Source of the DNA: an uncultured Planctomycetaceae bacterium
GTDB lineage: Bacteria; Planctomycetota; Planctomycetia; Planctomycetales; Planctomycetaceae
DNA: 64,000 bases
NCBI GenBank assembly: GCA_963815195.1
Contig: CAWFGE010000014.1
Location: 141,097 to 205,096, forward strand
Direction: 5' to 3'
The position numbers and the translations under genes were made by a program. A model generated the notes under the pieces. It ran no database searches and was not told where the DNA came from. It was given only the letters and a program-made list of their open reading frames with translations. Positions within the stretch are counted from its first letter, which is position 1. Every line of letters begins with the position of its first letter. Shown piece by piece: positions 9,040 to 64,000 of this stretch.

Positions 9040-9171
9040 CGCCACGGATGAAACACGAATCGAACACGGATTATAGAGAATGAGTTGACGTAATCTGGTC
9101 TGCGATACAAACGACGCAATGTCTTTTTTGCACCCAAGTCCTGCACAAGAATAGCCATGCTATTTTTGTCC

Positions 9172-9277
9172 TTACGCCGAAGGCGTTATATGACAAAGCC
9201 CAGGGTCAGCGGCGCAGCCGCGCCACCCTGGGTATCGGTTTCGAAAAAAAATTACGCCGAAGGCGTTAGACAAAGCC
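9172..9277. repeat. REP-type composite element
   Basis: Direct repeats ttacgccgaaggcgtta at 9172 and 9252 flanking hairpin cccagggt..gcggcgcagccgc..accctggg. Confidence 0.7.
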
Positions 9278-9329
9278 GTCGTTTTTTGAGGAACAGTAAC
9301 ACCGTTTTTATGCTGATGGAGTTATCCCG

Positions 9330-51043: not shown

Positions 51044-51080
51044 ATGCGGAGAAAAACCACCATTCACACGAACATTTCCT

Positions 51081-51220
51081 CCCTCGTTCCCAAGCTCCAG
51101 CTTGGGAACGCACTCTCGCGAAGCTCCGCTTCGCAACGCATCCTTAGTTCTTTGGCCGACGATTGAATGTGGGTCGTCCGACGTGAAGCGCGTTGCCAAG
51201 CAGCGCTTGGGAACGAGGGG
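51081..51220. repeat. REP doublet of the CTCGTTCCCAAGC family
   Basis: ccctcgttcccaagctccagcttgggaacg ... cgttgccaagcagcgcttgggaacgaggg. Confidence 0.75.
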
Positions 51221-51355
51221 GGAAAAGACAAGTCTGCTCGCACTCTGGATATGCATTCTCTCCGTTTTCTGACCGTGAGGCTATCTCAGATTCACGTTGC
51301 GCAATTTCTTACCTTTCGACTAACGTTTCAATCGAATCTACAAATGCGGCCAGAT

Positions 51356-52077
51356 CGACGGGGTGGCTGGGGCGCAATGGAATGTTTCAAGGAAAAAGGA
51401 GATTTGAGGCCTGGGGCCGTGTGAGATTCTTCTCGCCGGGCCACAGCCCCAGCTTTCGCAGTTCAAGCCCTATTCCAAGGGGGATTTGCGCCCCAGCCAC
51501 CCAGACGCTCCCCTCGTTCCCAAGCTCCGCTTCCCCTCGTTCCCAAACGGAGCTTGGCAACCACGGGAAATTCGTGTGATTCGTGGTTCCCGCCTCTTCA
51601 TGCCTTCGTGATCCCCTCGTCTTCGTGCCTTCGTGGTTCAATCCTTTTCGCGTCCGTCGTTTACTTCGTGGTCCCGTTGCCTCTCTTTGATCGTAGTGGT
51701 CTCGCAAGTGGCGACGGGGTGGCTGGGCGCAAAGGAATGTTTCAAGGAAAAAGGAGATTTGAGGCCTGGGGCCGTGTGAGATTCTTCTCGCCGGGCCACA
51801 GCCCCAGCTTTCGCAGTTCAAGCCCTATTCCAAGGGGGATTTGCGCCCCAGCCACCCAGACGCTCCCCTCGTTCCTAAGCTCCGCTTCCCCTCGTTCCCA
51901 AACGGAGCTTGGCAACCACGGGAAATTCGTGTGATTCGTGTAATTCGTGGTTCCCTCCTCTTCATGCCTTCGTGATCCCCTCGTCTTCGTGCCTTCGTGG
52001 TTCAATCCTTTTCGCGTCCGTCGTTTACTTCGTGGTCCCGTTGCCTCTCTTTGATCGTAGTGGTCTCGGAAGTGGCG
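51356..52077. repeat. Tandem duplication of a 356-bp non-coding unit built from REP/MITE-like parts
   Basis: Units start cgacggggtggctggg at 51356 and 51712; near-identical with a few substitutions and small indels. Confidence 0.9.
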
Positions 52078-60641: not shown

Positions 60642-60696
60642 TGTCACCGGGCACTTTAAAACCGGCCAGGGGTGGGCACTTCAAAACCGACAGGGG
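60642..60696. repeat. IS21 terminal repeat with two transposase-binding subrepeats
   Basis: tgtcacc gggcactttaaaaccggccagggg t gggcacttcaaaaccgacagggg. Confidence 0.8.
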
Positions 60697-60778
60697 TGTG
60701 AATGATTAGTGCCGCAACTTTGTCGCACAGTTTTTCTGTCGGTGGCAGTTTTGCTATCGGATGCTTGACCTCAATGGC

Positions 60779-61213
60779 TCAAGCCTCAGGTGGGGTTTTC
60801 TGGTCCTTTGAGCGTTTGGCTTGCTTATTTTCCGGGCAGTTTTTCTCCGCGGATTTCTCGCCCTGGACCCGGTGGGCACTTTGGCCGGTTTTGGGGCTTT
60901 GATTCCCCGTCTGCGTTTGGCCGGTTTTGGCGTCCCGTTTGGGCTTCTTTTCTTGGTTGGTTTTGGTGTCCTGGGGAGTCGTTTCCTCCGCGTCGCTTTT
61001 CTCTGCGGTTTTGTTGCGAAGGCGGTAGCTTTGGCCGGTGATCTGGATGATCTCGGCGTGTTCCAGGAAGCGATCCAAGATTGCGGTCGCGGCGGGAACA
61101 TCGCCGATAAGCTTGCCCCAATCTTGTAACGGTCTGTTGGAAGTCATCATCGTGCTTTTGACTTCGTGCCGGCGGAGGATGATCTCGAACAAACATTCCC
61201 CGCTTCGCTTGGG
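60779..61213 (-). pseudogene. istB: IstB ATPase, 3' half
   Basis: 'PKRSGECLFEIILRRHE..STMMTSNRP..WGKLIGDVPAATAILDRFL..ITGQSYR'. Confidence 0.85.
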
Positions 61214-61251
61214 TATGTTTCGACATAGTGCTACATCTCTCCAATAAGGGT

Positions 61252-63323
61252 TTAATTTAAGGGTAATTCCTTCTGTCGGCGGTCGGTTGATGGGCTTCGT
61301 TTTCCCGAATGAATGGCTTGGATGGTTCGCTTGACGGCCGGTAATTCCAAATCCTTTCGTTCGATGATCCAGGGTGCGTACTTGACAACTTGTTTGGCCG
61401 GGAGGTGGCCGAGCTTGATCAGGCGGCGAATGGCGGTGAAGCTGACATTTGAGATTTCGGCGGCTTGGCTCAGAGTCAGCCAGTCTTCGCTCTTCCGAAA
61501 ATTCGGTAGCTGGTATTGGTAGCGCACCTGACCGATTCGCGAGGCGATCCACGAGTTTCCCTGGCCCGTTCGATAGCCCAAGCGGTTGAGTATCGAAGCA
61601 ATCGCGCGGTCGTCGCAAACCTTCGAGAGTTCGGTGATCAACTCGCGAACGGTTTGATCGGTCACGCGTCCATGCTTGCCACGCGGGTTCCGGCGGACGA
61701 ACAGTTCGGTATGCACTCCTCCTTGCCAGTGCAAATGCAAATCATGTTGCGGAGGATCGTCTTGGCTGTTGACGACGATTTCGACAAGAACCGTTCGCAA
61801 GATGCGTTTCTTGGTTTCCGCGGATGTGGCGGAGTGGCTCCAGAGTTTCTTCAAGTCCGCCCCCAGTTTGAGCAATTGTTGCCGATCCTGGTCGCTAAGA
61901 ACGGTGACGTGGGAATCCAACTCGGCCAAACGTTTTTCCATCTCCGCCACATGTTTGAGTGCTGCGTTCCATCGTGCTTCGAGTTCCGCCGCCACGAGTC
62001 GGTTATCAGGATCGACCAAGTCGTATTGTTTTTGGGCTCGTCCCGCCTCATACCGAGCTTTCTCTAACGCCAGTTCGAGGGAGCGCCGCTTGTCTTCGTC
62101 TTCATGCAGCACTTGGTCCATCGCGGCGAGGGCGGCTTGGACTCCCGCGGGTTGGATGGCATCCAGAACGGTCTCACTGACCGCTTCATCCAAACGCAGA
62201 CCTCCGATGGCCAAGCAGGGAGCCGAACCGCGATGCGTTCTTCCGCCGCTGCAAACATAGCGCGGCACATTGCCGTCCGCGCCGCCGTACTTGGTAAACA
62301 TCATCCGGCCGCAGCGACCGCAACGCAGCAATCCGGCCAGAAGTGCGGGTCCGGTTTTGGCTGCCCCTCGTGTGGTTCCGTCAGGCATGTTTCGATTCGA
62401 CTCCAAAACCTGTTGATTTTGCAAATACTCTTTCCAAGTGATGTACCCGGGATGGTGATCCAAAATCAAGACTTTCCATTCCTCACGAGGCCGCTTTTTT
62501 CGACCGTTACTCTTCGCGCGGCCGTTCTCGACCACTGTTTGTGAGACCGTCCGTCCCCAGGCAAAAGCTCCCGCATAACACGGATTCTTTAGGATTTGCA
62601 GAATGCGGTGCCGGCCTGGAATATGCTACTGAGTCTCGCGACCCGAGGTGCCGGGGACGGCTTCAGGAAGCCGCAGTTGCTCTTGAGCGTACCAGAGCGC
62701 TGTCTGACGCGCGCTGCCCAGTTCGCGAAACTTGCGAAAGACTCCGCGCAAGGCGTCTTGCACTTGCCGATCGGCAATCATCTCCACCCGATGATCTTCC
62801 GTCTTCACGAAACCCACGGCAGGTTCCCAAAGGATATGACCCCGGCGAACTTTCTGTTCATAGGCGGCTCGGGCACGTTGCCGCAATAGTCCCAGTTCAA
62901 ATTCCGCCAAACTGCCCTTGAGCCCCAACAGCAATCGATCATTGAGTTGCGCGGATCGTAGACGCCGTCTTCATCGATGATTAACGTCTCCGTGATCGCA
63001 CAGAGATCAATCAAGTGATGCCAGTCCCGGTTGTTTCGCGCCAAACGCGAAGCCTCCAAAGCCAGAACGGCCCCCGCTTCGCCTTCGCAGACCGCCGTGA
63101 GCAATCTTGCGAATCCCGGGCGGTCTTGAAGTCCGCTGCCCGAGCGGCCGAGATCATCATCAATCACCGTAACCTTGCGGAACTTGAGCTGCCTGGCGTA
63201 ATCCGCCAGAGCATATTGCCGTTTTTGACCTTCGCGGTGCTCCCGCACTTGGTGATCACTGGATTGCCGGACATAGACAAAAGCGGTTCGCTCTCGGTGT
63301 TCAGATCGAATCTTCTCGTTCAT
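61252..63323 (-). pseudogene. Large serine recombinase (resolvase, recombinase, Zn-ribbon, coiled coil, C-terminal HTH), about 690 aa; frameshift near 62950 and in-frame TAG at 62626-62628 as assembled
   Basis: 'VYVRQSS' catalytic Ser, 'DDDLGRSG..RPGF', 'EASRLARN', 'LKNPCYAG', 'LLRCGRCG', 'DPDNRLVAAELEARWN', 'WLTLSQAA..IRRLI'. Confidence 0.9.
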
Positions 63324-63489
63324 CGACGTTCTCCTGTTGAGATTGAGAGGGGAAGGATTGTTTCAACTGCTGTGTGATTAAACGTTGGCACTCATCGCGG
63401 ACGGCTTGCGGGAGCTTGTCCCACAGATCAAGCCGCGCGAACGCAAACACCTGTTGTTTAGGAGGAGGGTGGACTTCGTTTCGCGGCAT
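63301..63489 (-). CDS. ORF2: 62-aa accessory protein overlapping the recombinase start
   Basis: AGGAG RBS; MPRNEVH..LWDKLPQAVRDECQRLITQQL..; overlaps ORF1 end and recombinase ATG. Confidence 0.55.
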   Translation of the reverse strand: MPRNEVHPPPKQQVFAFARLDLWDKLPQAVRDECQRLITQQLKQSFPSQSQQENVDEREDSI

Positions 63490-63772
63490 GAGGATCTCCT
63501 TGAGGAATTGAGTTTCCCTCAGTCGTAGAGTCTGCCTCCGCGTGAAACAATGGTTGGTGGTCCAGAAGTCGACGAAGCTCAAGCAGAGCCGCGATCCCGA
63601 TTCGCGGATGGTCCGCATCAGGACAATGACCGCAGGCGATGGGATCAAGCATCCAACACGGAATCGCGAGTTGCACATCGTCTCGCAGTCGTACGAGATG
63701 ATGAGCCGCATCAAATCGGCGAACGACCTCGACCTCTTCGCCATAGAAAGCGTGATAACGATAGCAGATCAT
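63458..63772 (-). CDS. ORF1: small accessory protein (resembles Y4bD/DUF5372-type 'YHxxxG..IPxWM.D..C' proteins found before such recombinases)
   Basis: MICYRYHAFYGEEVEV..LAIPCWMLDPIAC..ALLELRRLLD; frame stays open upstream to the element boundary. Confidence 0.6.
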   Translation of the reverse strand: MICYRYHAFYGEEVEVVRRFDAAHHLVRLRDDVQLAIPCWMLDPIACGHCPDADHPRIGIAALLELRRLLDHQPLFHAEADSTTEGNSIPQGDPHAAKRSPPSS

Positions 63773-63810
63773 TACTCGGGGCGATTCATGAGCAGTGTGT
63801 TGATGGATAG

Positions 63811-64000
63811 GGGCAATTGTTTCATGCCCATGTCGTCGATGATCAACAGGTCGGGCTTGAGGTATCGCATCAACGTTTTGTCATCGCCATCGAACGCGGC
63901 CTCGTGCAGGAAGTCGCGGACCACGTCGAAGATCGAACGGTAGAGCACCGAAAAGCCCGCCTTGATCGCGCTGCGGCCCACGGCCTGGCAGCAATGGCTC
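63811..64000 (-). pseudogene. istB: IstB ATPase, central part up to Walker B; 5' end outside window
   Basis: 'SHCCQAVGRSAIKAGFSVLYR..YLKPDLLIIDDMGMKQLP'. Confidence 0.85.

Follow-up and report, generated by a model that had tools for sequence, protein, structure and literature searches.

A compact large-serine-recombinase element at a proline codon of IS21 istB, with an apparent switch of target address

The window, that is, the whole stretch of 64,000 nucleotides analyzed here, ends inside an IS21 element whose istB gene is interrupted by a small insert. All features described lie on the minus strand. The right end of the host IS21, with a terminal ACA and two repeats (D2/D11) spaced 24–25 bp, is found at 60642–60698. 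It is followed by the 3′ part of istB, starting with KRSGECLFE (60779–61210; PF01695 positions 171–236, E 7e-19), which is 89% identical to C23, another IS21 copy of the same genome (G000). A further istB piece, the middle one, runs from the end of Walker A through DDMGMKQLP (63813–64000; PF01695 positions 107–167). The insert is bounded by core dinucleotides CC, at attR (61211–61212, bases 2–3 of a proline codon) and at attL (63811–63812). Its right arm (61213–61242) carries a conserved end motif (61224–61237) that includes an ATG (61224–61226), and a GGAG (61239–61242); the motif is spaced 11 bp from the attR core, as in the relatives. The conserved left-end motif (63787–63799) is an imperfect inverted counterpart, likewise 11 bp inside its core.

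Three open reading frames fill the 2.6 kb between the cores. A large serine recombinase gene of 690 codons (61252–63323) is broken, and its YVRQS motif places Ser21 at 63261–63263. Its start is overlapped by ORF-B (62 amino acids, 63301–63489), which has its own GGAG site and is a candidate recombination directionality factor. The body of ORF-A (63458–63810), a remote relative of DUF5372 with a predicted SH3/KOW-like barrel, is open up to the left core. No virion, conjugation, or relaxase genes were detected in the element, either among the open reading frames or by domain search, in agreement with a first-pass annotation which had described an insert with two tiny genes and a recombinase, free of phage, conjugation, and cargo functions.

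The same annotation had placed the cut in IstB directly after Walker B (DDMGMKQLP | KRSGECLFE), and this proved correct: the Pfam IstB_IS21 pieces meet on either side of the insert, with positions 107–167 at 63814–63999 and positions 171–236 at 60782–61213. A CCC is common to both junctions (63811–63813 and 61211–61213, 2600 bp apart), and removal of 2600 bp gives, as proposed, a continuous frame with no internal stop. The rebuilt empty istB matched the uninterrupted copy C23:241693-242340 at 88.4% over 621 nt, with a single gap near the 3′ end, far from the junction. Similarly, 22 of 29 fetched host-class loci read straight through the QLP/KRSG motif, the remaining seven being recombinase matches without istB. 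Contigs from two other studies skip 2600 bases from 61210 to 63811 with three shared letters; as they matched at 88% likeness, they represent related IS21 copies. Support across both junctions, which had been named as decisive, was obtained for one of them. A single contig of run X1, which may be the source sample, spans 61207–64000 with zero substitutions and bridges the left junction, but at the right junction it provides only about 24 letters on the element side, under the 31-letter rule. Crossover at a 2-bp core without target duplication fits both the rebuilt site and the junctions of the relatives, and excision of the element would restore istB exactly. An alternative crossover at a shared GAAACA hexamer was rejected on inspection of the junctions, because the istB frame would then be off by one base.

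As first annotated, the insert encodes a large serine recombinase, in which Resolvase, Recombinase, Zn-ribbon, coiled-coil, and HTH_17 regions are recognized. The gene is not intact, however, and carries an in-frame TAG at 62626–62628 that is common to the copies C14 (the one in the window), C21, and C19 and to X1. W233 of the recombinase is invariant in 24 of 24 full-length homologues. P0001, a homologue that is naturally intact, shares 90% identity. A 1-bp deletion after 62948 occurs in the C14 copy only and is probably an assembly error. Judged from its reading frame, the recombinase of the window copy is dead.

The C14 and C21 copies are 99.97% identical over 3360 bp, both with the TAG, and differ in their flanks beyond the IS end. 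Six different sequences adjoin the right end of the host IS21 in G000, and a 6-bp target duplication surrounds the uninterrupted C23 copy. None of the six left ends could be paired, by a target duplication, with the right flank of the window's IS21. Terminal inverted repeats, a target duplication, and a DDE transposase, the hallmarks of a classical DDE insertion sequence, are found in the host IS21 and not in the element. C23 is the only uninterrupted copy of this IS21 type, with frameshifts in istA and istB as assembled. The assembly breaks up at these repeats, which leaves both the number of copies and the direction of their movement uncertain. The window and the contig both stop at a further insertion junction, that of a second serine-recombinase element in Walker A of the same istB. 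Sequence of this 2.5-kb element 2 follows in the C18 copy. The composite carries two cuts in istB, and at three places the flanks of element 2 do not match. Whether the insert inactivates its host or hitch-hikes on it had been left as alternatives, and the data agree with both: istB is cut and its 3′ half lacks in-frame re-initiation, while IS21 together with its dead passenger is found at two different flanks (C14 and C21).

Mapping of further copies, as suggested earlier, revealed three related elements that break istB at the same proline after Walker B, namely C16 (85% nucleotide identity), L002 (69% amino acid identity), and L042 (65%), all with flanks confirmed by Pfam as IstB. Furthermore, in 13 of the 120 IstB clusters listed, the protein runs out into an element-type tail exactly four residues after K[QN]LP, compared with none at nine other offsets; these 13 tails are known from protein sequence alone, and four elements have DNA flanks. 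Of the two modes of targeting initially considered, istB-specific insertion is therefore the one that stands for this lineage, and relaxed insertion is not. A protein search of the phylum matched 18 of 401 genomes, all at ≤38% identity outside G000, and a DNA search of the class matched 53 of 401, mostly with short istB stretches; neither gave a further element at the istB codon. A GTDB scan returned five loci, one of them at the istB codon, and the scan of a viral collection a single distant relative.

In the wider family, many of whose metagenome loci are near-duplicates, a CG core was present at 50 of the 56 left ends that could be called and at 54 of 67 such right ends. For the Bryobacterales loci, a GT core was considered and given up in favor of CG on the basis of the 11-bp spacing. 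Left and right cores were equal in 36 of 45 loci with both called; of the nine unequal pairs, three look real (CG/CT) and six are probably motif miscalls. The arms have a fixed 11-2-11 spacing and are imperfectly inverted, with 13 of 28 attP positions matching at the chosen register against 4–10 at six shifted ones, a weak signal from one element. Core-to-core length was 2597–2618 bp in the 43 loci with both ends. The loci L095 and L103, with the palindromic CG core, have opposite orientation. Serine-integrase chemistry permits insertion in either orientation with a palindromic core.

The three istB-site recombinases included in the tree form one clade (support 1.0), nested in a group that targets tyrosine recombinases; in a quick tree, SH-aLRT was 100 for this clade and 98 for the group around it. 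Neither tree contains the C16 recombinase, which is frameshifted, and the clade also includes 16 database proteins and two flankless loci with no target assigned. In 62 of 80 loci, insertion had occurred at the catalytic arginine (HxxR) codon of tyrosine recombinases, and nearly all of the 34 frames matching PF00589 are broken at Pfam position 132|133. By its sequences, the istB lineage is therefore nested among elements that target the HxxR arginine codon. A few sister elements lie in other genes (L060 in a PAS-domain gene and probably also L099, L116, L121, and L126). The istB and tyrosine-recombinase targets resemble each other only modestly, the istB site having a median rank of 42 among about 1500 positions under the tyrosine-recombinase target profile. 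As close relatives share one istB codon and the sister lineage a tyrosine-recombinase codon, the target address appears to have been switched.

ORF-A seems to be split across attP, as its start codon (ATG 61224–61226) would be supplied only across the joint of the excised circle. Reconstructed circles gave an open reading frame of at least 100 amino acids in 42 of 43 cases, compared with 1 of 43 at a core displacement of one base and 1 of 43 at two. Among 32 distinct ORF-A starts, 27 lack an internal start codon. The window's ORF-A does contain an internal ATG (63772), but no ribosome-binding site accompanies it, and the C16 element has ACG instead. Comparison of ORF-A with a DUF5372 cluster of the ESM Atlas gave 0.93, and sub-threshold matches to PF17342 were obtained for 10 of 13 family members tried, whereas the window's own ORF-A gave none. 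The predicted fold is a generic SH3/KOW-like barrel (best Z 6.2, rmsd 1.7, 47 aligned residues) and gives no function. Foldseek returned nothing for ORF-A at E ≤ 0.001, and profile comparisons with the pNGR234a DUF5372 protein (probability 3.9%) and with the ORF-A of element 2 were not significant.

ORF-B is conserved in 32 aligned elements and had no sequence match in Pfam, NCBIfam, or PDB. It was modelled on the base of the recombinase coiled coil with a score of 0.74 (best control 0.01), passing a mark that is reached by 116 of 157 solved pairs and 2 of 215 mismatched pairs. Runs agreed in at least 81% of contacts, partner pLDDT was at least 60, and ORF-B contacts the coiled coil at both of its ends in the model; the models were built with custom alignments at a pLDDT of about 60. 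As solved SprA–SprB complexes exist, the pass may reflect likeness to them. In phiC31, gp3 binds the coiled-coil base of the integrase (PMC5814800). From the model, ORF-B is a candidate for a directionality-factor-like protein.

Taken together, the locus is probably occupied by a cargo-free integrative element with its own large serine recombinase, whose lineage has specialized on the proline codon after Walker B in the istB of one IS21 subgroup. The junctions, as read, place crossover at a 2-bp core without duplication and put related elements at the same codon in different IS21s. The recombinase, with ORF-B as directionality factor, would excise a 2.6-kb circle and restore istB. Circularization would join the ribosome site and ATG of the right end to ORF-A, so that a protein made only from the circle could result, and this protein perhaps favors re-integration; the circle would then enter another istB. 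No joint of such a circle was seen in the contigs of four runs, and contigs drop rare forms. The window copy, with its dead recombinase, has probably spread as a passenger of IS21, the ends of which are left intact, and this IS21 would most likely have been moved by IstA and IstB supplied in trans.

The same sites could have arisen by relaxed targeting, with near-consensus sequences (roughly TG(C/G)-CG-(A/C)AGCG) being accepted and only insertions in dispensable mobile genes surviving. Shared bases adjoining the core in the two target consensuses, cores that tolerate a one-base mismatch, and the few sister elements in other genes would all suit such a process. Survival bias, however, would not yield the same codon, as observed for the four DNA-flanked members and the 13 protein tails at one position. 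Nor would it account for the nearly uniform break in the tyrosine recombinases, and the istB site is not even the best site of its own gene under the sister profile; we regard relaxed targeting as unlikely. Less probable still is a skin- or SPbeta-like element that is excised during development and retained by the host to switch IS21 transposition. Although exact restoration of istB would serve that purpose, the recombinase stop in three copies speaks against it, and the relatives are multicopy and sit in many different IS and integrase genes, which fits selfish spread. The contig end among repeats and the mismatched flanks of element 2 could also suggest an assembly chimera or what is left of a larger prophage or island. 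This reading is largely refuted by the constant size and the conserved, precise ends of the family; moreover, X1 has the sequence on one contig and the viral collection gave only its distant relative.

A different doubt concerns how the copies spread. Rather than having moved with IS21, each might have been filled separately by an intact recombinase in trans, now lost or unassembled, or through gene conversion among the IS21 copies. Action in trans is established for serine integrases, the istB of the composite was entered twice, and the sole uninterrupted IS21 of this type carries its frameshifts. No intact recombinase of the istB-site lineage is present in the assembly, however, and the surrounding IS21 sequence, too, is nearly the same from copy to copy, so separate filling is conceivable but doubtful in our view, and we retain transport as an IS21 passenger. 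A bolder extension is put forward only tentatively. These elements may be self-contained two-state machines in which translationally coupled ORF-B drives excision and circle-only ORF-A turns the recombinase to integration. The family would walk from istB Walker A to the HxxR of tyrosine recombinases and on to the proline after istB Walker B, via near-cognate DNA and a mismatch-tolerant core, and one istB might carry two parasites that gate IS21 while riding it. If true, this would be a natural record of how serine integrases change target.

The findings point to a class of compact mobile DNA whose address lies where other mobile elements encode conserved catalytic motifs, with one lineage caught after a switch of address. 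Through such a switch, matched natural recombinases that are 57–66% identical and have different known targets become available. They allow a direct question of which residues set serine-integrase specificity, which is relevant to genome-engineering tools. Annotation pipelines miss such elements, displaying them as a "recombinase family protein" between two istB fragments. That the window copy is itself dead limits the surprise.

A literature search gave no serine-recombinase elements targeting istB, and the ISfinder and TIGER/Islander tables could list some. IstB is absent from the text of PMC12884075, as are IstB and IS21 from the accessible text and eight supplements of PMC10083194. With the phage serine integrases (phiC31/gp3, Bxb1, and SPbeta SprA/SprB) the istB element shares domain order, catalytic serine, and a 2-bp core without duplication. 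SPbeta YokA/SprA is the best PDB sequence match of the recombinase (E 2e-6), and ORF-B is modelled where gp3 binds (PMC5814800). Unlike these systems, it has no phage genes, measures 2.6 kb in total, targets the gene of another mobile element, and has a gene split across attP. Streptococcal IMEs with serine recombinases (PMC7168690) also specifically target conserved genes of another mobile element (SNF2, PPI, and traG of ICEs), but they carry a relaxase and often cargo and reside in ICEs, whereas the istB element has neither and resides in an IS. The DUF4368 multi-targeting recombinases likewise combine a large serine recombinase with movement through a circle, which the istB element would share; they use many unrelated targets (PMC10083194), compared with one codon for the istB lineage, and the DUF4368 domain had no match in the element's proteins. 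Precedents for joint-dependent expression are promoters, such as ICEclc Pcirc (PMC5812530), whereas the joint of the istB element would build a translation start and not only a promoter. IS607 serine transposases, with a short TnpA, an N-terminal HTH, and low target specificity, differ in their profile (NF033518 score 20.6 against a cut-off of 110) and from the codon-specific targets seen here. In Tn4451/TnpX and Tn5397/TndX, a large serine recombinase moves the element through a circle with loose target choice.

The closest parallel is a 3.3-kb repeated element of Sinorhizobium fredii pNGR234a (WP_010875067-070), which we take to be NGRIS-4 (y4bA-y4bD). In 1997, Perret and colleagues reportedly described NGRIS-4 as an IS, without a serine-integrase mechanism, and all of its copies are said to have lain inside other IS elements, for which the present elements offer a mechanism. 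Its recombinase of about 690 amino acids is 41% identical over 611 residues (E 1e-128), its first gene is DUF5372 (the homology to ORF-A being remote) with an ATG also supplied across attP, and its three plasmid copies lie at one motif inside transposase genes, two of them in IS21 istA. It differs from the istB element in its target, a P-x-x-K|G/A motif of DDE transposases, in an additional HTH gene, and in being longer by 0.7 kb. On these sequence comparisons, the istB element belongs to the same wider family as the pNGR234a element and is distinct from it.

The 2.6-kb element (minus strand, 61211–63813), which comprises a large serine recombinase, ORF-A and ORF-B, interrupts an IS21 istB gene close to the contig end, at which the window (C14:141097–205096) also stops. 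The match to the IstB_IS21 profile ended at profile position 167 (63814–63999, minus strand) and restarted at position 171 (60782–61213, minus strand), with two copies of CCC at 63811–63813 and 61211–61213. According to the first-pass annotation, deletion of 2600 bp restores the istB frame. The empty site rebuilt by script was indeed an open frame, and an uninterrupted istB copy on contig C23 of the host genome aligned to it over 621 nt at 88.4% with a gap-free junction. The expectation that homologues run contiguously across the break also held: a DNA search across 401 genomes from the host's class yielded 29 loci, of which 22 were uninterrupted istB genes through the motif and the other 7 were recombinase matches. 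An exact 2600-base skip at the insertion point was found in contigs of two other studies; as their likeness is 88%, these represent related IS21s. Furthermore, a single contig of sequencing run X1, which may be the source sample, spanned 61207–64000 with zero substitutions, its right junction lying below the 31-letter rule.

The C-terminal tail of istB contains KTGQ-coding 36-bp repeats (60779–61010), and the motif also occurs at the istA start of the same IS21. Three short dispersed repeat families of about 150, 60, and 115 bp were seen elsewhere in the window (51352–51864, 51075–51143, and 9161–9282, respectively), all with many copies in the host genome; the first lies within a 357-bp tandem duplication.

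When metagenomes were scanned using an alignment of 24 close homologues, 439 relatives were confirmed, and the best 80 were analyzed. In their common layout, 11 bp separate the 2-bp core from an end motif on either side, and element length was 2597–2618 bp where both ends were present. Precise core crossover and this fixed 11-2-11 layout bear out the earlier claim of a serine-integrase type crossover at a 2-bp core. Junction motifs of the best 80 relatives, many of them near-duplicates, placed 59 antiparallel and 2 parallel in a tyrosine-recombinase gene; one carried both signatures, one lay at the istB Pro codon following Walker B (DDMGMKQLP), one in istB Walker A, and 16 were unplaced, mostly for lack of flank. 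Pfam assigned 50 hand-picked flank frames to Phage_integrase (34), IstB (4), ArdC-N, PAS, and HTH (1 each), or to no family (9). Nearly all Phage_integrase matches ended at position 131–132 or began at 133, the HxxR Arg.

Four elements whose flanking DNA was available occupied the same istB Pro codon (the window's, that on contig C16, and metagenome loci L002 and L042), which favors istB-specific over relaxed targeting, the two options left by the first-pass annotation. Searching proteins with the N-terminal portion of IstB gave 720 clusters. Among the best 120 of these, 13 switched directly after K[QN]LP to a tail resembling the element's left end, and the first tail residues differed among all 13. 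The tail pattern was absent at every other offset from 0 to 9 in the same 120 clusters, and it is this control that bears the weight, because the pattern was defined after the tails were known. IstB proteins P0213, P0214, and P0166 diverged at DDMG (two sharing a tail start) or after KQL, and may reflect another element inserted one or two codons from the Pro site, or frameshifts. A 52%-identical relative sits inside an ArdC-N-domain gene (L006:2800–5420), a gene type typical of mobile elements. Locus L055 has the same integrase-gene half on both flanks, inverted, which is either an assembly artefact or an inversion. The Bryobacterales genome G779 contained 19 matches to the recombinase family from several subfamilies (L153–L172).

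FastTree analysis of 64 recombinases grouped the three istB-Pro proteins in one clade (support 1.0) nested among the tyrosine-recombinase targeters, and the Walker A and ArdC targeters fell outside that group. A quick IQ-TREE tree of 25 recombinases was concordant (SH-aLRT 100 and 98). Support in both trees is expressed as FastTree or SH-aLRT values, and the outgroups are long branches. Most relatives had CG as the core dinucleotide; at the istB Pro it was CG or CC. Three loci (L084, L085, and L086) had a left core CG and a right core CT, apparently the result of integration across a one-base core mismatch, which suggests how the core could change. Near-core bases were common to the istB Pro and tyrosine-recombinase targets. 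Under the tyrosine-recombinase target profile, the istB site had a median rank of 42 out of some 1500 positions when a 10-bp window was used, and of 73 and 171 with 6-bp and 14-bp windows, respectively; it thus exceeds chance, yet is not the top site.

By sequence comparison, ORF-A is a remote DUF5372 relative, with a predicted small SH3/KOW-like barrel fold. Of 32 distinct family members, 27 lacked a start codon upstream of the first conserved motif of ORF-A; this count leaves out 4 loci set aside in advance and 4 others in which the motif was missing. At the right end of the element there is a purine-rich site, together with an ATG located 14 bp inward of the core. When the two ends were joined, 42 of 43 loci yielded an ORF of 100 aa or longer, compared to 1/43 and 1/43 when the core was shifted by one or two bases. 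As the right core was anchored on the ATG, the independent check is the target gene ending at that core.

ORF-B is conserved, has its own ribosome site, and overlaps the recombinase start. Its predicted complex with recombinase residues 234–633 scored 0.74 (best control, 0.01); 116 of 157 solved pairs attained the score mark, as did 2 of 215 mismatched pairs. Contacts agreed by at least 81% between runs, with a partner pLDDT of at least 60, and involved residues ~389–405, 480–512, and 533–539, both ends of the coiled coil, the binding region of phiC31 gp3 (PMC5814800). The model supports binding of ORF-B to the recombinase coiled coil, although comparable complexes are already solved and the score may reflect likeness to them, and makes ORF-B a candidate directionality factor.

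The recombinase is interrupted by TAG (62626–62628) in every copy reaching this position (C14, C21, and C19) and in X1. Since Trp occupies this position in 24 of 24 aligned homologues and in the diverged C16 element, TAG represents a nonsense change. The window's copy further shows a 1-bp deletion after position 62948 that is absent from C21, C19, C18, and X1, and this probably reflects an assembly error. The host genome assembly contains no intact recombinase of this lineage. The C14 and C21 copies were 99.97% identical across 3360 bp to the IS21 end and diverged beyond it, the simplest reading being that IS21 transposed carrying a dead passenger element. That the copies were each filled in trans, or by gene conversion between IS21 copies, is the less likely reading.

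Past the window's end, the C18 copy runs into element 2, a different serine-recombinase element of ~2.5 kb; its recombinase (696 aa) shares 35% identity with that of the window's element. The junctions of element 2 lay at the Walker A Lys codon (9/9 left, 7/7 right) in three istB types. The host genome holds at least nine copies, ~99% identical and with core AA (C7, C8, C12, C15, C16, C18, and C23; loci L013, L015–L017). With reading frames open in C18, C12, and C15, element 2 looks recently active. In three copies (C16:84400–86870, C12:1840–4310, and C15:137080–139550) the left and right flanks came from different istB types, indicating either rearrangement between copies or misassembly. Double occupancy arose independently at L042 (1–1400), where one istB holds both a Pro-site element and, in Walker A, a serine-recombinase element in antiparallel orientation.

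The sequences establish that crossover at the core is precise, that targeting is specific to the codon level, that the ends are fixed and the start is split, and that the enzyme of the window's copy is dead. In the proposed mechanism, recombinase and ORF-B would excise the element, the excised circle would produce ORF-A, and the circle would re-integrate in another istB; passive spread within IS21 could follow, with IstB provided in trans. New are the second address within istB, evidence that the lineage switched from a tyrosine-recombinase address, two parasites per istB gene (two occurrences), and the candidate directionality factor.

The literature searched, with subscription papers thinly covered and ISfinder outside its scope, held no account of istB-targeting serine-recombinase elements; nor did a term search for istB targeting in PMC10083194 (text and eight supplements) and PMC12884075 (text). 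Parasitism of mobile genes has a precedent in IMEs with a serine recombinase that target ICE genes (PMC7168690).

The recombinase shares 41% identity with WP_010875070 from Sinorhizobium fredii plasmid pNGR234a, where a 3.3-kb repeated element likewise has a DUF5372 gene as its first gene. Its three copies (L007, L008, and L009) cross over at one P-x-x-K|G/A motif with a common 4-base overlap; two of them reside in IS21 istA genes and the third in another transposase gene. We take this element to be NGRIS-4, which, from a 1997 account by Perret et al., is said always to sit within other IS elements. A tblastn search against plasmids matched 442 records, for the most part rhizobial; in three of four inspected, the element was antiparallel in istB Walker A, and the fourth junction was not cleanly readable. 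The split-start layout recurs in element 2 and in all three pNGR234a copies. Identity of the window's element as the pNGR234a element itself, IS607, an IME, or a prophage was rejected. It is a real, well-defined element that operates like a phage serine-integrase system and falls in the wider family to which the pNGR234a element belongs.
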